A stretch of 55,666 nucleotides of DNA, from contig JBDHHL010000002.1 of the NCBI GenBank assembly GCA_039589375.1, positions 1 to 55,666 on the forward strand, given 5' to 3'. Below, piece by piece: positions 1-34,033 of the stretch. Under the pieces are notes generated by a model. That model made no database searches, was not told the DNA's origin, and saw only the letters and a program-made list of their open reading frames with translations. Position numbers and translations under genes: made by a program. The stretch is from Gemmatimonadota bacterium (GTDB taxonomy: Bacteria > Gemmatimonadota > Gemmatimonadetes > Palauibacterales > KS3-K002). Positions within the stretch are counted from its first letter, which is position 1; each line of letters opens with the position of its first letter.

Positions 1-2864
1 CGAAGCTCGAAGTTGGCGGTGACCAAGCGGCTCCCGAACAGCTGGTCGTAGATCGGGCAAGGGCTATTGTTCAACCCGATGAACGAACTGTTGCCCGACG
101 GAGGTGAGGCGCATTCGCCGTATCCGAACGAACCCGAGTCATATCCTCGGACCAGCTGCTGGTACCCGAGGAACAGCGCTTGCATCCGCAGATCTTCGCC
201 GCCGCTCCCGTAACGGCCGAAGTGCAGGAGGCGCCCGGCCAGCGTGTACGGCGCCAGCGGCATGAAGTAGCGACGGTAATCCGCGAGGGCTCCGACGTAG
301 TTGAGCGAGCCGAAGTTTGGCGCGACTTCCAACCGGTAGCGCTGCCCCAGCACGGGCCCGGTGTAACCGAAGAACGTGTTGTCGTAGACGAGGGCGGCGG
401 TGGCCGTTCCCAGATTGAGCGCTCTCGGCGTGCAAAGCGAGATGAAGATGTCCTCATCCGTCTCGCATTTCGGGAACTCCTCTTTCGTCTCGTCGAGCAG
501 GCTGCCCGCGGGTGACAGGGTTCTGGTAATGAGCTCGTAGTCGTACGAGATATTTCGGTAGCGGCCACTGAACTCGACACGCTGTACACGATTCAGCGGG
601 TAGATCAGCGAACCCATCAGCTCGCGGCTCGTCTGGCGCAATCTCAGCTCTTGCTCGAGGAACTCTCCCGTCGTTGGATCGAGGCCGAAGCCGAATCGCC
701 GGTTCAGGATCGGGACCTGGCCACCGGTCACACCCCAGTTCCAGCGCGACCTGCGGTTGTTGTAGCCGACAATCGCGGCAATATCCTGGAAGCTGCCGTT
801 GACCTGGAGTAGCGTGGCGAGAGAGTGCTCGCCCAGGTTGTCGCTCCAGAACAGCGCTGTTCCACCGCCCACAAAGGTCCCGTAGCGGTCGCTGCCAACG
901 GCAACCTGGGGCGGAGCGATATAGTCCAGCGACAGGCCGGCGCTGTACTTGGCCGTCTCGAACTCGTCGGAGGTTACCGGCAGGCCGAGTTCCGCGTTCC
1001 CGACCAACGCCATTACATCCCCCACGGCCCGGTCTGCCGGTGGAAGCACGGCTGGGCTGATCTCGGCGAGCGGCGGCAGCACCGGCCCCCCTTCGAGCAC
1101 CGCCGTGGAATCGATTGCGTAGATCGTATACCGGTCGCCTTCGTAGGCGCTGAACACGATCCGATCAGCATCGCTCGCCACCGACATAGCCGGACTGAGC
1201 TCGGTGATACCGCTGACGCCCGTCGTCAGGTTGGTGACTTGGTAGATGGCGCTATCTGACAGGTCCACCCGGTAGATGTTGCTGATGCCGTTGGCATCGG
1301 ACAGGAAGTACAGGCTCGACCCGTCCGACGACCACTGTGGATTGATGTTCTTGGCAGCCGGGAAGCCGGGGACGCGCTCGATTTCTCCCGACACAGGATC
1401 GATGAGGGCCAGTTGGTACGCTCCCCAATCGAGCGTCCGCAGATCGGTGGTGAACCGGTCGGTGACAAAGGCTATACGGCTGCCGTCGGGAGACCACTCC
1501 GGCTGGAGATCAGCATACGGGTCATCGGTCAGTTGACGCCACTCACCCGTTTCCATGTCGAGGACGAAGAGGTCCATCAGGCCGCCAACCGCTGCGGCGT
1601 AGACGATATGTCGCCCATCCGGAGAAAAGGCCGGGTTGAAGATCTCTCCTGCCTCCGAGATCTTGAACTCCCTGACGGCCTTTCCGCGCTCGGCATCAAT
1701 GACGGTGATGATCGGCTTCCCCCTGCTCACACCTGCAAAGACGAACTCGCGACCGTTGGGGTGCCAATTTCCGGCCGAATTGATGAACTGCAGACTCTCG
1801 TAGTGCGGGTCCGTGGCCGTCTTGAGGATCTTCTTATTGACCTTCCCCGTCTCCGAGTCGGCGCGGAACATCTCGATGGAGAATCGATCCTTCTCCGACA
1901 GGAAGACGACCTCCGATCCGTCCGGGCTAATCGAGGGCGCGATGTTCAGGTTACCGCTGCCAGTTTCCGGAGAGATAACGACACGGCCGAACTCGCTCGC
2001 CGGCTGCGTGACTTCGACTAAGCCCTCGTAGGCTTCACGGATAGACTCTTCCCACGAAGCCATCAGCTCGTCCGGCGAGATCTGGAGAACGCCGGCGATG
2101 GCCTGCGCTACGTTCCCCGTCGTTGAGGCTGCCTTGAGAATCTCGCCGACCGCTGGATCGCCCCAGCGACCCCCTATGTAGGCCCAAAGCGCGTGGCCGT
2201 ACCGGTAAGGGAAGTACTTCGGGTTGGCCAAATCGCGGAAGGTGGGAAAGACGTCTCTGCGCACCGCATCGTGCATCCACATGGCGGTGTGCGCGTAGAC
2301 CGGCCCCAGCGACAGGTATTCCGCCATTCCCTCGATGAACCAGAGCGGCATAGCGAGCGCCGTGGGGAACCCGCCCCCGATGGCCGAGCGTGACTGCGTC
2401 GTTATGTCGAACTGAAACGCGTGCACCAACTCGTGGCCTAGTACATGGTCGGTCTCGGCCAGTGAGCCGGCCATCGGGAGGACGACCCTCCGCTTGAACG
2501 CCTCGGTGACACCGCCGGTGGCTTCATCGATCGTGCCATAGAGGGCCGTCGTTTGCTCGAAGTCGGGGTGGTCGGCGTAGAGGATGATCGTCTGCCGGCC
2601 GCTCAACTCATGATTGAACAGCCGCGACAGTCGCGCGTACCAACGCTCGGCCATCCTACCGGCCTGATCGACAGCATCCCGCGCCTCCGGGTAATAGAGG
2701 ATATCGAAGTGGGCGGTCTTCAGTGTCTTGAAGTCGAATTTCTCGTACTGAACCTTGTTCCGACCGAAGTACTGGGCCTCCGCCACACCTGCCCCCGGAC
2801 CCACGGCCAGAAACAGAGCCAGAGCCAAGCCTACCGCATACGGACGAGCGCCGTCGAATCTCAT
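1..2864 (-). CDS. Partial (3' end off-window) multidomain outer-membrane protein: zinc-metallopeptidase-like domain (HExxH) + TolB-like WD40 beta-propeller repeats + Omp85/surface-antigen-like C-terminal barrel
   Basis: Absent from the ORF track because no stop lies inside the window. Hand translation of the minus strand from ATG (complement of 2862-2864, preceded by GGAGGA) stays open to base 1. Signal-like N-term MRFDGARPYAVGLALALFLAVGPGAGVAEAQ. GHELVHAF motif. Repeated TolB-type blades (FSPDGRHIVY, WSPDGSRIAF, WSSDGSSLYF). Barrel-like C-terminal region ending ...GSRLVTANFEL at the window edge. Confidence 0.8.
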   Translation of the reverse strand, partial: MRFDGARPYAVGLALALFLAVGPGAGVAEAQYFGRNKVQYEKFDFKTLKTAHFDILYYPEARDAVDQAGRMAERWYARLSRLFNHELSGRQTIILYADHPDFEQTTALYGTIDEATGGVTEAFKRRVVLPMAGSLAETDHVLGHELVHAFQFDITTQSRSAIGGGFPTALAMPLWFIEGMAEYLSLGPVYAHTAMWMHDAVRRDVFPTFRDLANPKYFPYRYGHALWAYIGGRWGDPAVGEILKAASTTGNVAQAIAGVLQISPDELMASWEESIREAYEGLVEVTQPASEFGRVVISPETGSGNLNIAPSISPDGSEVVFLSEKDRFSIEMFRADSETGKVNKKILKTATDPHYESLQFINSAGNWHPNGREFVFAGVSRGKPIITVIDAERGKAVREFKISEAGEIFNPAFSPDGRHIVYAAAVGGLMDLFVLDMETGEWRQLTDDPYADLQPEWSPDGSRIAFVTDRFTTDLRTLDWGAYQLALIDPVSGEIERVPGFPAAKNINPQWSSDGSSLYFLSDANGISNIYRVDLSDSAIYQVTNLTTGVSGITELSPAMSVASDADRIVFSAYEGDRYTIYAIDSTAVLEGGPVLPPLAEISPAVLPPADRAVGDVMALVGNAELGLPVTSDEFETAKYSAGLSLDYIAPPQVAVGSDRYGTFVGGGTALFWSDNLGEHSLATLLQVNGSFQDIAAIVGYNNRRSRWNWGVTGGQVPILNRRFGFGLDPTTGEFLEQELRLRQTSRELMGSLIYPLNRVQRVEFSGRYRNISYDYELITRTLSPAGSLLDETKEEFPKCETDEDIFISLCTPRALNLGTATAALVYDNTFFGYTGPVLGQRYRLEVAPNFGSLNYVGALADYRRYFMPLAPYTLAGRLLHFGRYGSGGEDLRMQALFLGYQQLVRGYDSGSFGYGECASPPSGNSSFIGLNNSPCPIYDQLFGSRLVTANFEL

Positions 2865-11490: not shown

Positions 11491-11955
11491 TCAGCTACCC
11501 TTGCTGAGGGTGAAGACGTACGCTGCCGCGGCCGCGGCCTGCTCGTCACTGATGCCGCTGCCACCCTTCGCGGGCATCGCCGTACCGACTGTAGACGCGC
11601 TGGCGTCAACGCCTTCCATGACCGTCTTCACGATACCCTGGTAGGACCCATCGCCGTGAGCCCACTCGTCGTCCGTCAGGTTTGCACCGAGACCCGGGAC
11701 ACCGGTCCCATCCGCACCATGACAAACGTTGCATAGACCGGCGCCGCCAAATATCTCCTGGCCCTGTGCGACCATCTCCATGGTGACGCCCTCGGGCAGC
11801 TGCACCTCGGCCTGCTGTTCGGCCTGGGGTGCCTCAGCCGCAGCAACCTCGCCGGATGCCGCTTCTTGCTGGCCAGGCTCGCCGCCGCCACAGGCCGCCA
11901 TGACCGTGAGGCCGAGCACGACTCCCAACATCGTCAAACCGCGCTTGCGAAGCAT
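11491..11955 (-). CDS. Class I c-type cytochrome, lipoprotein
   Basis: ATG at 11953-11955 preceded by GGAGGGG. Signal and lipobox [22 protein letters not shown]. Haem motif CNVCH. Distal Met in GTAMPAKGG. Confidence 0.8.
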
Positions 11956-12125
11956 CTGAACCCCTCCAGTGTGGTTTAAGGGCAACTCACCGTGAGCGTG
12001 TCTCAGCGCACGAACCGATCGGAGTCTTCCAGCGGATGGTCGGGGCCCATCAGCAAGCTGCAAATCAACTCGGATGCTATCGTTATCAGCCATCGATAAT
12101 ACCGGGGTCGCTGCAACGCGTCAAG

Positions 12126-30172: not shown

Positions 30173-30838
30173 ATGGTCCGAATCGCACCGAGCATCCTGA
30201 GCGCCGACTTCACTCACCTTGGCGAACAGATCGCCGAAGCTGAAGCTGCAGGTGCGGACTGGATACACGTGGACGTGATGGACGGGCATTTCGTGCCGAA
30301 CATCTCCGTCGGTCCGATGATCGTGGAGGCGGCACGACGCTCCACACAGCTGCCTCTCGACGTCCACCTCATGATCGAAGAGCCGGATCGTTATCTGCAC
30401 GAATTTGTCAGTGCCGGCGCAAACTGGCTCACCGTCCACCAGGAGACCTGTCAACACCTACATAGAACGGTACAGATAATCAGAGAGCTCGGAGCCCACC
30501 CGGGAGTTGCGGTTAACCCGGCCACACCGGTGGAGTCGCTGACCGAGATCCTGCCATTCGTGGACCTGATCCTAGTGATGACTGTGAACCCGGGCTTTGG
30601 AGGCCAGGAATTCATCGAGGAATCCTTGGCAAAGATCCGTCGGCTCCAACACCACATAGCTTCCATGGGCGGTCCTGGGCCCGTGATCGAGGTAGACGGA
30701 GGCATAGACCCAGAGACGGCGCCAGCGGTGGTGGCCGCCGGAGCCACCGTACTCGTTGCGGGTTCAGCGGTATTCTCCGGCGGCTCGATCAAGGACAATC
30801 TGCGAGCCCTCCGCCGCAGCCTGGCTGTGGATGTGTGA
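30173..30838 (+). CDS. rpe: Ribulose-phosphate 3-epimerase
   Basis: [17 protein letters not shown]...[18 protein letters not shown]...[13 protein letters not shown]...VDGGI. Confidence 0.93.
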
Positions 30839-30936
30839 CTTTCGGGGAACCGAGCCTGGCCAGCCTGCGTTTCTATTGCGATTGGTTGCGGCTGTGATGA
30901 GAGCCGCTGACGGTGAACGATAGCTGACCGAGAAGA

Positions 30937-31038
30937 ATGCCCCGATTCGAGTGTACCAGTTGGCCTTGCATCTGTTGTAGCGGCGCCCATGCCGCCGCGC
31001 CGCGTTGCACTCGGGAGCGCAGTGATTCGATGAGTTGA
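30937..31038 (+). CDS. Candidate Cys-rich leader peptide (33 codons) of the cysteine operon
   Basis: ATG 30937; MPRFECTSWPCICCSGAHAAAPRCTRERSDSMS; TGA 31036-31038. Five Cys codons at 30952, 30967, 30973, 30976 and 31006. Weak purine-rich GAGAAGA upstream. Confidence 0.35.
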   Translation: MPRFECTSWPCICCSGAHAAAPRCTRERSDSMS

Positions 31039-31061
31039 GTCTCCCATTGACGAGCACCGAG

Positions 31062-31095
31062 ACGGCCGCGGCCTCGAACAGGACGCGGCCGTTTT
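31062..31095 (+). terminator. Intrinsic terminator/attenuator hairpin immediately upstream of the cysM-like gene
   Basis: ACGGCCGCG (31062-31070) pairs perfectly with CGCGGCCGT (31084-31092). 13-nt loop, then TTTCTGTC. Only about 25 nt remain before the 31121 ATG. Confidence 0.5.
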
Positions 31096-31120
31096 CTGTC
31101 TACCAGGAGTTAGCGAACCG

Positions 31121-32077
31121 ATGGCGGTCACTACGCGAGACAAGCCCCGAGCAGGCGTCCGAATCGAAACGCCGGCCTACGAGACGCCGGGTGTTGGGGA
31201 CATACAGGGCCTGGTCGGCAACACCCCGCTCGTGCCGCTCTCGCTTCCCGGCGTAGAGCCTGGAGTCCAAGTCCTCGCCAAGGCTGAGTGGCTCAACCCC
31301 GGCGGTTCCGTGAAGGATCGGGCCGCGCGAGCCATCGTACTAGACGCGGAATGGCGCGGCGAACTTCCGGGAAGGCGGCTGCTGGATGCCAGTTCCGGCA
31401 ACACCGCGATCGCGTATGCCATGCTGGGTGCCGCGCGGGGCTTCCCGGTGACGATTTGTCTGCCGGCCAGCGCGAGCGCAGAGCGGAGGACGCTGCTGCG
31501 AGCCTACGGCGCGCAGGTGATCGAGACCGAGCCGCTCGAGGGTTCGGACGGTGCAATCCTCGCGGCGAGGCAGCTAGCGAGCGAGAGGCCCGAACTCTAC
31601 TTCTACGCCGATCAGTACAACAACCCGGCCAACGCCCGTGCTCACTTCGAGACGACCGGGCCGGAGATCTGGCGCGGGACCCGCGGTGCCGTAACGCACG
31701 TGGTGTGCGGCCTGGGAACGAGCGGGACGTTGATGGGTGTGGGCCGTTACCTGAGAACGCACAACCCTGACATCGAGCTGATAGCGGTCCAACCCGACGA
31801 CGCGTTCCACGGGATCGAGGGCCTCAAGCATCTACCCACGTCCATCGTTCCCGGCATCTTTGATGCGTCGCTGCCCGACCGCACTGTTCGGGTGCGCACG
31901 GAGGAGGCATATGCTATGACGCGTCAGCTTGGCCTCGGCCTCGGTTTGCTGGTCGGTCCTTCATCCGGTGCCGCTGCCTTTGCCGCCCGGCAGCTGGCAT
32001 CGGAGCTTGGCCGAGGTTGCGTCGTGGCGCTCTTCCCGGATGGCGGCGAGCGTTATCTGAGTCTGAACCTCTGGTAG
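31121..32077 (+). CDS. cysM: Cysteine synthase family PLP enzyme (CysM-type by context)
   Basis: GNTPLVPL...NPGGSVKDRAA (PLP Lys)...SSGNTAIAYA...GTSGT. Followed by JAMM and sulfur-carrier/E1 genes, as in CysO-dependent cysteine synthesis. Confidence 0.85.
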   Translation: MAVTTRDKPRAGVRIETPAYETPGVGDIQGLVGNTPLVPLSLPGVEPGVQVLAKAEWLNPGGSVKDRAARAIVLDAEWRGELPGRRLLDASSGNTAIAYAMLGAARGFPVTICLPASASAERRTLLRAYGAQVIETEPLEGSDGAILAARQLASERPELYFYADQYNNPANARAHFETTGPEIWRGTRGAVTHVVCGLGTSGTLMGVGRYLRTHNPDIELIAVQPDDAFHGIEGLKHLPTSIVPGIFDASLPDRTVRVRTEEAYAMTRQLGLGLGLLVGPSSGAAAFAARQLASELGRGCVVALFPDGGERYLSLNLW

Positions 32078-32084
32078 GCATACG

Positions 32085-32582
32085 ATGGGTGAGATCCAGC
32101 AACGGAAGGAAGCCACGGTGACCGGCCCTCGTTTGGCACTCAGCCTCGATGTGGCTGCTGTGATCCGTGAGCACGTCGAGGCCGCCTACCCGGAGGAAGC
32201 GTGCGGAGGTTTGCTCGGAAACCCCAACGACGAGGGGAGTTGCCAGGTGATGGCCGCCGTACCGATCGAAAACTCCCGCAGCGGCCAGCGGAAGCGGCGC
32301 TACTTGATCGGCCCGGAAGATGTGTTGCAGCTAGAGAAAGACGCGGAAGCTGCAGGCCTTGAGGTGATCGGCTACTACCACTCGCATCCCAACGCGCCCC
32401 CGCTCCCTTCCGAGTTCGACCGGGAGCACGCCTGGCCATGGTACGCTTACCTGATCATCAGCGTTCATGCAGGGAAGTCAGTCGACGCGCAGGCGTGGAG
32501 ACTCGCTGAGGATCGTGAGGCTTTCGATCCCGTCCATATCGACCCGACGGTATCACTGACCACAGAGATCGGTAGACAATGA
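32085..32582 (+). CDS. JAMM/MPN+ metalloprotease (Mec-like)
   Basis: EEACGGLLG and YHSHPNAPPLPSEFD (E...HxHx7Sx2D JAMM motif). Alternative in-frame GTG at 32118 with GGAAGGAA upstream. Confidence 0.85.
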   Translation: MGEIQQRKEATVTGPRLALSLDVAAVIREHVEAAYPEEACGGLLGNPNDEGSCQVMAAVPIENSRSGQRKRRYLIGPEDVLQLEKDAEAAGLEVIGYYHSHPNAPPLPSEFDREHAWPWYAYLIISVHAGKSVDAQAWRLAEDREAFDPVHIDPTVSLTTEIGRQ

Positions 32583-34033
32583 AGACGATATCGATAGTCG
32601 TTCCCACTCCGTTGCGGCAGTACACGGACGGCCGCGATACCGTTGACGTGGAGGCATCCACGGTCAGCGAAGCGCTCGCTGCCCTCACAGAACGACACTC
32701 GGCTCTGAAGAGCCATCTGTACTCCGAAGACGGGCAGCTGCGGAGTTTCGTGAACATCTACCTAAACGACGAGAATATCCGCTACCTTGAGGGAGAAGGC
32801 TTTGCAAGCCTGAAGAGCGGAGACGAGATAAGAATCGTACCTTCTATCGCTGGCGGAGTGACAAAGCTGGAGATGGACCACGTGGAGCTAAGCCCTCAAG
32901 AGATCCGGCGCTACGCCCGGCACATCATCATGCCCGAGGTCGGGTTGGAGGGGCAGACGAAACTGAAGGAGGCGCGGGTACTCCTCGTGGGGGCCGGCGG
33001 CCTTGGCTCGCCGGCCTCCCTATACCTGGCGGCCGCCGGCGTGGGGACGCTGGGCCTAGTGGATTTCGACGTTGTGGAATACAGCAACCTGCAGCGGCAG
33101 GTCATCCATGGCATGGGCGACGTAGGGCGCCCAAAAGTGCACTCGGCGCGCGCCCGGCTCCTGGACATTAGCCCGGAGATCGCGGTCGAGACCCACGAGG
33201 TGCGGCTGACATCGGAGAACGCGCTGGAGATACTCGATGGCTACGACATCGTCGTGGATGGCACCGACAATTTCCCAACTCGCTACCTGGTGAACGACGC
33301 CTGCGTCTTACTCGGCAAGGCTAACGTCTACGGTTCCATTTTCAGGTTCGAAGGGCAGGCATCCGTATTCTACGCCAAGGATGGGCCATGCTACCGCTGC
33401 TTGTTCCGCGAGCCGCCGCCGCCGGGTCTCGTACCGTCATGCGCAGAGGGAGGCGTACTAGGCGTTCTGCCGGGAATCGTCGGCGCCATCCAGGCCAACG
33501 AGACGATCAAGCTGATAATCGGTCAAGGCGAGTCGCTGATCGGTCGGCTGCTGCTATTCGATGCTCTGCGCATGAGTTTCCGGGAACTACGCTTGCGCAA
33601 GGACCCGGACTGCCCAATCTGCGGTCAGCAGGCTACGATTCGGCAGTTGATAGACTACGAGGCGTTCTGCGGCGTCGGCGCTGCCCAGCAGGAGCAGGCG
33701 ACAGCCGATGGCGTAGTACCGGCAATCACGGCCTCCGAACTCAAGACACGACTCGACGCCAACGATGTGATTCGAGTAATCGACGTTCGCGAGCCGTACG
33801 AGTTGAAGATCTGCAGCCTCGAAACGGCTGAGCCGATCCCATTTCGTGCCGTACCCGACCGAGTGTCGGAGCTGAGTACCGCCGAGGATATCGTCGTGAT
33901 CTGCCGTAGCGGGCGGCGCAGCGCTGATGTCGTTCGCTACCTTCGGGAAAAGGGCTACACCAAGGTCTACAACCTGAAGGGAGGTTTGCTGGCGTGGTCG
34001 GACGAAGTGGACCCATCGATGCACAGGTACTAA
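32579..34033 (+). CDS. Tri-domain fusion: ThiS/MoaD/CysO-like beta-grasp sulfur carrier (aa 1-93, ends AGG) + MoeB/ThiF-type E1 adenylyltransferase + C-terminal rhodanese (MoeZ-like)
   Basis: ...GDEIRIVPSIAGG | VTKLE | MDHVELSPQEIRRYARHIIMPEVG...LLVGAGGLGSPASLYLAAAGVG...CYRC...CPIC...rhodanese VICRSGRRS. ATGA overlap with the JAMM stop. Confidence 0.88.
   Translation: MKTISIVVPTPLRQYTDGRDTVDVEASTVSEALAALTERHSALKSHLYSEDGQLRSFVNIYLNDENIRYLEGEGFASLKSGDEIRIVPSIAGGVTKLEMDHVELSPQEIRRYARHIIMPEVGLEGQTKLKEARVLLVGAGGLGSPASLYLAAAGVGTLGLVDFDVVEYSNLQRQVIHGMGDVGRPKVHSARARLLDISPEIAVETHEVRLTSENALEILDGYDIVVDGTDNFPTRYLVNDACVLLGKANVYGSIFRFEGQASVFYAKDGPCYRCLFREPPPPGLVPSCAEGGVLGVLPGIVGAIQANETIKLIIGQGESLIGRLLLFDALRMSFRELRLRKDPDCPICGQQATIRQLIDYEAFCGVGAAQQEQATADGVVPAITASELKTRLDANDVIRVIDVREPYELKICSLETAEPIPFRAVPDRVSELSTAEDIVVICRSGRRSADVVRYLREKGYTKVYNLKGGLLAWSDEVDPSMHRY

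Follow-up and report, generated by a model that had tools for sequence, protein, structure and literature searches.

Introduction

How does transcription reach a cysteine biosynthesis operon whose first start codon lies just behind a strong hairpin terminator? The question is raised by the 282-nucleotide (nt) spacer that separates rpe from a cysM-like gene in a Gemmatimonadota bacterium (assembly GCA_039589375.1, contig JBDHHL010000002.1). The spacer lies within a stretch of 55,666 nt that was analyzed as a whole and is called the window here; all coordinates are window positions and refer to the forward strand unless stated otherwise. A first-pass annotation had proposed that the spacer holds a Cys-rich leader peptide and a terminator that act together in the manner of the trp and his attenuators. 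Our comparative and structural analysis supports this proposal computationally, through conserved elements and the recurrence of the same arrangement upstream of other cysM genes. We consider it likely that the spacer encodes a classical ribosome-mediated leader-peptide transcription attenuator, keyed to cysteinyl-tRNA, which controls the cysM / JAMM / CysO-MoeZ operon.

Cysteine has long been a conspicuous gap among the amino acids whose genes are attenuated by leader peptides. The tested cases are translational only and come from mycobacteria, and a terminator-based cysteine version has so far been predicted only, and only at a tRNA synthetase gene. The locus described here, together with its relatives, suggests that a trp-style switch also governs cysteine biosynthesis by the CysO-thiocarboxylate route in three mostly uncultured phyla.

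Results

A Cys-rich leader and a strong terminator precede cysM

The elements of the proposed attenuator are listed below.

30937-31038, forward strand: leader peptide upstream open reading frame (uORF) MPRFECTSWPCICCSGAHAAAPRCTRERSDSMS, 33 codons plus TGA, with ATG at 30937 and TGA at 31036-38
30952-54, forward strand: additional Cys codon, 5' of the cluster
30967-30978, forward strand: regulatory Cys cluster TGC-ATC-TGT-TGT (C11, I12, C13, C14), the proposed ribosome stall site, whose core TGCATCTGT is kept in relatives
30980-30985, forward strand: segment 1 (GCGGCG), 5' arm of the post-Cys hairpin, beginning 2 nt past the last Cys codon of the cluster (which ends at 30978)
30993-31015, forward strand: segment 2, including CGCCGC/GCCGCG at 30993-31004; 30993-98 pairs with segment 1, or alternatively 30994-31002 and 31010-15 pair with the terminator 5' arm and its flank
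31055-31072, forward strand: segment 3, the terminator 5' arm ACGGCCGCG (31062-70) with the upstream flank CCGAG (31057-61), common to antiterminator and terminator
31084-31101, forward strand: segment 4, the terminator 3' arm CGCGGCCGU (31084-92) and the U-rich tract UUUUCUGUC (31093-31101)

The uORF and its five Cys codons, C-I-C-C among them, were found where the first-pass annotation had placed them. The Cys codons are TGT at 30952, TGC at 30967, TGT at 30973 and 30976, and TGC at 31006, and TGT is indeed the rarer synonym, as had been presumed (39 TGC and 11 TGT codons in 20 long open reading frames (ORFs) of the window). Cys accounts for 0.53% of codons in the same ORFs. The probability of at least five Cys in 33 codons is 9e-7 at this coding frequency and 2e-3 for random sequence of the same composition, and that of at least three TGY in four codons is 8e-5. 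The Shine-Dalgarno (SD) sequence of the uORF, GAGAAG, is weak. A search of Pfam and NCBIfam with four leader peptides found no matching family. Two other short ORFs with Cys clusters in the window (674-802 and 11729-11959) were considered as parts of a 'ribulon' and rejected; neither lies upstream of a sense-strand gene, and 674-802 falls in apparent antisense coding sequence.

The terminator proposed in the first-pass annotation is likewise present. Its 9-base-pair GC stem is formed by 31062-70 pairing with CGCGGCCGT (31084-92) and is followed by the U-run, 21 nt after which lies the cysM ATG. The hairpin has a predicted folding free energy (dG) of -25.4 kcal/mol with z = -5.0, and 0 of 200 shuffled sequences were as stable. 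Within the window alone, this is the only leader structure that stands out from shuffles. A simple scanner missed it because the loop limit of the scanner is 8 nt. The palindrome GGCCGCGGCC at the core of the 5' arm was also considered as a dispersed repeat and rejected, having just 2 copies in the window.

The first-pass annotation had left open whether the element was catalogued. At the gathering threshold, Rfam 15 gave 0 matches in the whole window and in 16 related loci, and with the spacer at E <= 10 it returned only sub-threshold, terminator-like fragments.

The leader can form alternative helices

The 1:2, 2:3 and 3:4 pairings of the first-pass annotation are all available to the leader RNA. 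Helix 1:2 joins GCGGCG (30980-85) to CGCCGC (30993-98), and helix 2:3 joins GCCGCG (30994-99) to CGCGGC (31067-72). To represent the stalled state, the RNA left free by a ribosome halted at Cys13/14 was cut before the 3' arm and folded with RNAfold. In this fold 30994-31002 and 31010-15 pair with 31055-72, so that segment 2 captures the 5' arm of the terminator. The segment 2:3 duplex of the window has dG = -23.7, compared with -18.5 +/- 2.7 for shuffles (p = 0.028).

The geometry also agrees with stalling at the Cys cluster. Because segment 1 begins 2 nt past the last Cys codon, it lies within the footprint of a ribosome stalled at C13 or C14. Such a ribosome would mask segment 1 (30980-85) and leave segment 2 (from 30993) free. 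The footprint size used here is that generally known for bacterial ribosomes.

The leader anatomy is conserved in the close clade

The comparative search suggested in the first-pass annotation bears out the arrangement. A CysM protein scan of 185,579 species-representative genomes gave 80 loci; a metagenome scan was also run, and the usable cysM loci number 149 in total. The six best CysM loci (L001-L006) come from Gemmatimonadota metagenome-assembled genomes (MAGs) and encode proteins 72-77% identical to that of the window, which puts the window in the same phylum. The metagenome scan contributed just one close relative, L081. The gene order rpe - leader - cysM - JAMM - CysO/MoeZ is kept in L001-L006 and L081.

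All 6 of the MAG loci have a uORF with a Cys run, a post-Cys hairpin, a segment 2 able to pair with the terminator 5' arm, the terminator, and cysM. The uORF ATG is invariant in the alignment of relatives, and the Cys-run core is kept in L001-L004 and L006. The peptides of the clade (MAQLVCICCHCACCHG..., MGKMIRTGCICTHRHG..., MRRRDRICSCPCICRHG..., MAGFVCICCWRR..., MAQLVCACCHCARCHG... and ...FCTTCICICRHG...) have nothing in common beyond the Cys run and the hairpin-forming codons. The 5' arm of the post-Cys hairpin begins 0-2 nt past the last Cys codon in the window and its relatives, and the residues H-G or S-G that follow the Cys run are conserved because their codons, CAC GGC or AGC GGC, form this arm.

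The terminator is nearly invariant in the clade, where it reads CCGGCCGCGGCC - loop - CGCGGCCGG followed by a T-run, and the palindromic core of its 5' arm is invariant in 7 clade members. Hairpin and T-run are kept in all relatives while the spacing between the arms varies from ~7 to 16 nt, as would be expected of an RNA hairpin more than of a dimeric operator bound by protein. In every clade member the cysM start codon lies 0-28 nt past the U-run, and no sigma-70-like promoter is found in between. Read-through is therefore needed to reach cysM, as the first-pass annotation had argued.

The alternative pairing is conserved as well. For stalled-state RNA cut before the 3' arm, RNAfold predicts that the terminator 5' arm takes the 3' half of the post-Cys hairpin as its partner in 6 of 7 clade members, and the segment 2:3 duplex energies beat dinucleotide shuffles in 6 of 7 (p = 0.004-0.08). 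In the MAFFT alignment, hairpin 1:2 and the terminator together have 85% of cells paired, against 26-52% when the pairing is slid; five pairs changed on both sides, four of them in hairpin 1:2. For hairpin 1:2 alone the value is 82.5%, with 4 of 9 pairs changing on both sides. The antiterminator has 92.9% of cells paired, against 30-49% when slid, and 2 compensatory pairs. MAFFT misaligns the outer antiterminator pairs of the window, so only aligning columns were counted and the displaced pairing is reported separately.

Cys leaders with terminators recur upstream of cysM in other phyla

A Cys-cluster uORF was defined as a short ORF with at least three Cys in six residues, at most 400 nt upstream of cysM. 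By this definition 41 of the 149 cysM loci have one on the sense strand, compared with 6 on the antisense strand and 4.55 in shuffles. A hairpin with a T-run lies between the uORF and cysM in 36 of these 41 loci but in only 24 of the 108 loci lacking a Cys uORF (Fisher p = 1.8e-13), and two of the five 'misses' (L049 and L060) do have terminators on inspection.

The loci with Cys uORFs span Gemmatimonadota, Chloroflexota (Anaerolineae included) and Acidobacteriota, and their leaders are otherwise unrelated. The peptides range from 12 to ~50 residues and have only poly-Cys in common; examples from outside the clade are MFNLFCCCCCHKAGRLG, MKHLTCCCCCCQMR, MFYLSACCCLKRGDKRPSDG, MARLCCCRRMRGGSPAVAPTLVS and MLNFHMSPVGPKKNLACCCCRTSLEVGTR. 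In L060, which represents an independent Gemmatimonadota lineage, the leader has its own, different terminator (GGCCGCGACCCC...GGGGUCGCGGCC), and an 11-nt copy of the terminator 3' arm inside the Cys uORF forms an explicit antiterminator (dG -25.2, compared with -17.2 +/- 2.5 for shuffles, p = 0.004). The recurrence of a Cys run, a terminator and cysM in unrelated leaders is the strongest argument that the Cys codons would serve as the sensor.

The Chloroflexota loci have a Cys leader type of their own, ~100-200 nt upstream of cysM (L014, L016, L022, L027, L029, L035, L036, L039, L042-L044, L050, L051, L054, L063, L080, L119 and L135). There the Cys codons, UGUUGUUGU-CUGAAG, are the 5' arm of a hairpin with CUUCAGACGGC, and two terminators are nested, the inner one (GAAGGCGUGG...CCGCGCUUUU) lying within the outer one (GCCGACAG...CUGUCGGCUUUUUU). 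The peptides of this type have the conserved end ...CCCLKRG(R/DKRPSDG), and the leader has no Rfam match.

A promoter-like motif lies upstream of the leader

A candidate promoter of the extracytoplasmic function (ECF) type was found at the beginning of the spacer.

30845-30871, forward strand: promoter-like motif GGGAACC-N17-GTT, beginning 7 nt past the rpe stop, with an ECF/SigH-type -35 element GGAACC (30846-51) and a -10 element GTT (30869-71)

This is the sole match to GGGAACC-N17-GTT in the window, but ~0.9 matches are expected by chance, and the motif is not significant alone. It is conserved at the same place in L001 (3729-3755), L004 (3600-3626), L005 (3694-3720), L006 (3675-3701), L081 (484-510), L049 (412-438) and L060 (3675-3701), and occurs as GGAGGAACC in L002. 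A conserved promoter-like motif between the two speaks against a hairpin that serves only to terminate rpe, and it is in keeping with the view of the first-pass annotation that read-through is what brings polymerase to the operon. The motif fits the Mycobacterium tuberculosis SigH consensus GGAAYR-N17-18-GTT (PMC4803200). SigH directly drives mec-cysO-cysM and moeZ in M. tuberculosis (PMC4803200; PMC8280819). The motif suggests that an ECF-type promoter, possibly responsive to thiol stress, feeds the attenuator. Transcription would then start near 30877-30880, and the 65 nt between the end of the motif and the uORF ATG would imply a leader. A consensus promoter/terminator scanner detected no sigma-70-like promoter in the spacer.

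In L003 (1590-1630) a sigma-70-like TTGACC-N17-TATCAA replaces the ECF-like motif and the uORF ATG lies 9 nt past the -10 hexamer, so the uORF of this relative may be leaderless as in mycobacteria.

The putative 5' untranslated region (UTR) of the window holds a small hairpin, GCGGCU-GUGAUGAG-AGCCGC, at 30889-30907. A hairpin of other sequence (GAGAG...CUCUC) is found at the equivalent place in L001 and L005, and the window hairpin may be a 5' stabilizing stem. Separately, several Gemmatimonadales loci that have no Cys leader (L055 1745-1771, L075 4531-4557, L115/L117 3037-3063 and L150 1520-1546) carry GGGAACC-N16-18-GTT within cysM itself, at ~+530 nt of the coding region. There the motif could be a coincidence of the coding sequence or could serve downstream genes as an internal promoter.

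The downstream operon

The genes around the leader are listed below. Pfam agrees with the order cysM-JAMM-CysO/MoeZ after rpe that the first-pass annotation had given.

30173-30838, forward strand: rpe (Pfam Ribul_P_3_epim, E = 2e-80)
31105-09, forward strand: SD sequence of cysM, AGGAG
31121-32077, forward strand: cysM-like pyridoxal phosphate enzyme (Pfam PALP), with ATG at 31121
32085-32582, forward strand: JAMM/Mec-like protease (Pfam Prok-JAB)
32579-34033, forward strand: CysO-MoeZ fusion of 484 amino acids (Pfam ThiS-ThiF-Rhodanese)
31121-34033, forward strand: the putatively regulated operon, cysM-like / JAMM / CysO-MoeZ

The downstream genes correspond to the CysO-thiocarboxylate route to cysteine (PMC4803200, PMC8280819). 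In the fusion protein the CysO-like ThiS domain (residues 1-93) ends ...SIAGG, with the two glycines at residues 92-93, and the MoeZ-like ThiF-Rhodanese part (residues 94-484) follows in frame. The CysO-like Gly-Gly C-terminus is not free because of this fusion, which suggests that the JAMM protease would have to cut the CysO-MoeZ protein, in the way of a ubiquitin precursor, to free an active sulfur carrier. The start of the fusion gene overlaps the JAMM gene (ATGA).

Two ORFs on the reverse strand were rejected as genes. The first (30451-31143, 230 amino acids) spans the leader and part of rpe and is longer than rpe, and a naive longest-ORF caller would choose it; it has no credible Pfam match, overlaps the well-supported rpe, and is best regarded as a shadow ORF of GC-rich DNA. 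The second (30764-31057) also has no credible Pfam match.

Discussion

A model for the proposed cysteine attenuator

Every feature of a trp/his-type attenuator that can be sought in sequence was found at this locus: a uORF, clustered Cys codons, a terminator with no promoter after it, mutually exclusive helices, and the geometry that connects them. The computational checks suggested in the first-pass annotation all turned out on the side of its reading. From these elements, their conservation, their structural compatibility and their association with cysM, we infer that the uORF is translated, that ribosomes stall on it, that transcription and translation are coupled in this phylum, that the helices compete kinetically, that the ECF-type motif is the promoter, and that the leader responds to cysteine in vivo.

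Transcription would start upstream of the uORF, probably at the GGGAACC-N17-GTT motif, and perhaps also arrive by read-through from rpe. As long as Cys-tRNA is charged, the ribosome would run through the uORF to 31038, ~20 nt before the terminator flank, and thereby cover or unwind segment 2. Helix 2:3 would be blocked, helix 3:4 and the U-run would form, and transcription would stop at ~31093-31100, ~25 nt before cysM. If Cys-tRNA runs short, the ribosome would stall with C13 or C14 (30973-78) in the A site, and its 3' footprint would mask segment 1. Segment 2 (30994-31015) would then be free to capture 31055-72 as it emerges. The terminator would come too late to form, and polymerase would pass the U-run into cysM, the JAMM gene and CysO-MoeZ.

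Several observations weigh against this model. Although the proposed helices are present and conserved, their stability within the window is unremarkable: shuffled GC-rich sequence folds as stably as hairpin 1:2 (z = -0.96) and the antiterminator (z = +0.17). The significance of the alternative helices thus rests solely on their conservation in relatives. The fold of the whole spacer (z = -0.72) is also no more stable than shuffles. At equilibrium the terminator state is better by ~10 kcal/mol even with segment 1 masked (-44.7 vs -34.2); the switch must therefore work kinetically, and the antiterminator would have to form ahead of transcription of the 3' arm. The trp attenuator likewise depends on kinetics. 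The outer part of the window antiterminator pairs with a displaced partner, CUCGG at 31010-14, and not with the aligned columns. Among the relatives, the predicted antiterminator of L004 is not better than chance by dinucleotide shuffles, the uORF SD sequences are inconsistent as well as weak, and the pair counts rest on seq­uences numbering 7, two of which (L001 and L005) are close. Because the terminator stem is invariant in the clade it carries no covariation information. A triple constraint is a plausible cause of this invariance: arm 4 and segment 2 are both partners of arm 3, and segment 2 has a further partner in segment 1, which is coding. The relatives are all contigs of MAGs or metagenomes. 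Finally, in L081 (475-683; CysM 73% identical) both the promoter-like motif and the terminator are present, but the leader is shorter by ~75 nt, and the Cys codons of the uORF, MISRKCRPATEAARTHRCT, are isolated and form no run. The L081 leader would have either degenerated from the attenuator or kept it in minimal form.

Alternative explanations

The alternative that survives best, though we think it unlikely, is that the Cys uORF controls cysM by a route other than the intrinsic terminator. Control would be exerted by translational attenuation through occlusion of the cysM ribosome binding site or by Rho-dependent polarity, and the hairpin would be a constitutive partial terminator or a stabilizer. 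The sole experimentally proven Cys uORF attenuators do act on translation (bioRxiv 10.1101/834739), but the cysM SD of the window lies 3' of the terminator and in predicted folds is unpaired with the Cys tract or with any conserved partner. Several relatives have cysM only 0-10 nt from the U-run with little SD, where initiation may depend on upstream events, and the terminator forms at equilibrium irrespective of stalling. Nevertheless, segment 2 has its conserved partner in the terminator 5' arm, and a hairpin with a T-run is far more common with Cys uORFs than without them, both of which favor control through termination.

It is quite improbable that the uORF is instead an independent small gene for a Cys-rich micropeptide, metal- or redox-active or acting in trans, with the hairpin as its own terminator and the adjacency to cysM reflecting functional linkage. 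A small ORF followed by a terminator resembles a complete transcription unit, and some leader peptides have functions in trans (PMC7298713), but cysM would then be left with no room for its own promoter. While the start codon and the Cys cluster are conserved, the sequence outside the Cys run is unconserved even in the clade, and across phyla only poly-Cys is common. Furthermore, the residues past the Cys run are explained by the RNA hairpin, and the peptides match no protein family.

We regard as more improbable still a terminator controlled by a ligand or a protein, such as a riboswitch, a T-box-like element or an RNA-binding protein, in which the Cys codons would be incidental. The spacer has no Rfam match beyond terminator-like fragments, although riboswitches or T-boxes often govern sulfur-metabolism genes in other phyla. 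The stretch between the uORF and the terminator is poorly conserved. The invariant palindrome could be a binding site, yet the variable spacing of the arms fits an RNA hairpin and not a dimeric operator, and in-frame Cys runs recur across unrelated leaders. A chance arrangement, with the hairpin serving rpe and the Cys-rich ORF random, is hardly credible and strongly disfavored by the comparative data: GC-rich spacers do hold many short ORFs and possible helices, and the window-only z-scores of the alternative helices are unremarkable, but relatives and other phyla keep the uORF with its frame, the Cys cluster and the architecture, and the hairpin lies 224 nt past rpe, behind the conserved promoter-like motif.

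Implications of the proposed attenuator

More tentatively, and with odds that we place somewhat below even, the leader would belong to a large, uncatalogued and probably polyphyletic class of Cys-codon attenuators guarding cysM-type synthases in at least three phyla. In Gemmatimonadota it would stand in series with a SigH/SigR-like ECF promoter, and the locus would then be a two-input gate in which the CysO-dependent pathway is on only when a thiol/oxidative-stress sigma factor is active and Cys-tRNA is short. No classical attenuator based on a terminator would have been described before it for cysteine biosynthesis genes. The ECF-type motif hints at such combined redox and cysteine control, echoing SigH control of the same genes in M. 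tuberculosis. The arrangement offers a simple sequence signature by which cysteine regulons in MAGs could be annotated, a candidate family for Rfam, and a compact Cys-responsive part for synthetic biology.

Comparison with known systems

The window leader resembles the classical attenuators (trpL, hisL, leuL, thrL, pheL and ivbL of Enterobacteria, and trp of Corynebacterium and Streptomyces; PMC1262725) in its short uORF with clustered codons for the end product, in its segments 1-4 with exclusive 1:2, 2:3 and 3:4 helices, and in its GC hairpin and U-run directly before the first structural gene. In both, the terminator is thermodynamically favored and the antiterminator must come first. In contrast to those systems, cysteine would be sensed here, the host is a member of the Gemmatimonadota, there is no sequence similarity, and the promoter is likely of the ECF type. 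The regulatory codons are three of four consecutive codons plus scattered Cys codons, and the uORF runs ~60 nt past segment 2 to stop ~20 nt before the terminator flank.

Cys leader peptides were predicted in Actinobacteria by Seliverstov et al. (2005), where terminators were explicitly absent (PMC1262725). Canestrari et al. (2020) demonstrated that polycysteine leaderless small ORFs of mycobacteria attenuate translation by SD occlusion (bioRxiv 10.1101/834739; Mol Microbiol 114:93), and described cysteine uORF-mediated attenuation as previously undescribed (bioRxiv 10.1101/834739). Like the window leader, these small ORFs place runs of Cys codons before cysteine-metabolism operons, and they use stalling on scarce Cys-tRNA as the signal, as the window leader probably does. 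The same pathway, mec-cysO-cysM, is stress-regulated in M. tuberculosis. The two differ in their output. In mycobacteria the SD of the following gene is bound by the Cys tract and, as both papers expressly state, a terminator is lacking; the ORF is also leaderless. Here a strong terminator is the conserved output, the SD is free in predicted folds, and a 5' UTR of ~60 nt is predicted. Thus the window leader has the consecutive Cys codons of the mycobacterial class, but neither its SD sequestration nor its lack of a terminator.

The same genes, encoding CysM, JAMM/Mec, CysO and MoeZ, are under SigH/SigR control in M. tuberculosis (Sharp et al. 2016, PMC4803200; Khan et al. 2021, PMC8280819), and GGAACC-N17-GTT fits the consensus. 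Here the evidence for such a promoter is a sequence motif only, and the M. tuberculosis promoter is not followed by an attenuator with a Cys uORF and a terminator.

A further parallel in mechanism is uORFC-8-2 of the Rhodobacterales, a tandem-Cys uORF with a terminal U-run before cysS that Brewer et al. (2021) read as ribosome-mediated transcription attenuation (PMC8632094). Both have predicted tandem Cys codons (usually at positions 14-15 in uORFC-8-2, and at 13-14 here), stems, a terminal U-run taken to mark an intrinsic terminator, and proposed attenuation by sensing of Cys-tRNA. In uORFC-8-2, however, the target is a tRNA synthetase gene of Alphaproteobacteria and the Cys codons lie inside the first of two conserved stems, whereas the window leader precedes a cysteine biosynthesis operon, has its Cys codons directly 5' of the first stem, and is unrelated in both lineage and sequence. 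Compared by description and not by covariance model, the window leader falls outside uORFC-8-2 on two points, its cysM-like downstream gene and the position of its Cys codons 5' of the first stem.

In the literature we found no Cys leader or terminator described at cysM or cysO, nor in Gemmatimonadota, Chloroflexota or Acidobacteriota. The mechanism itself is textbook, and cysteine-sensing uORFs are already known. What is new is a terminator-based form at genes for cysteine biosynthesis, which seems to extend across three little-studied phyla and may be linked in series with an ECF promoter.

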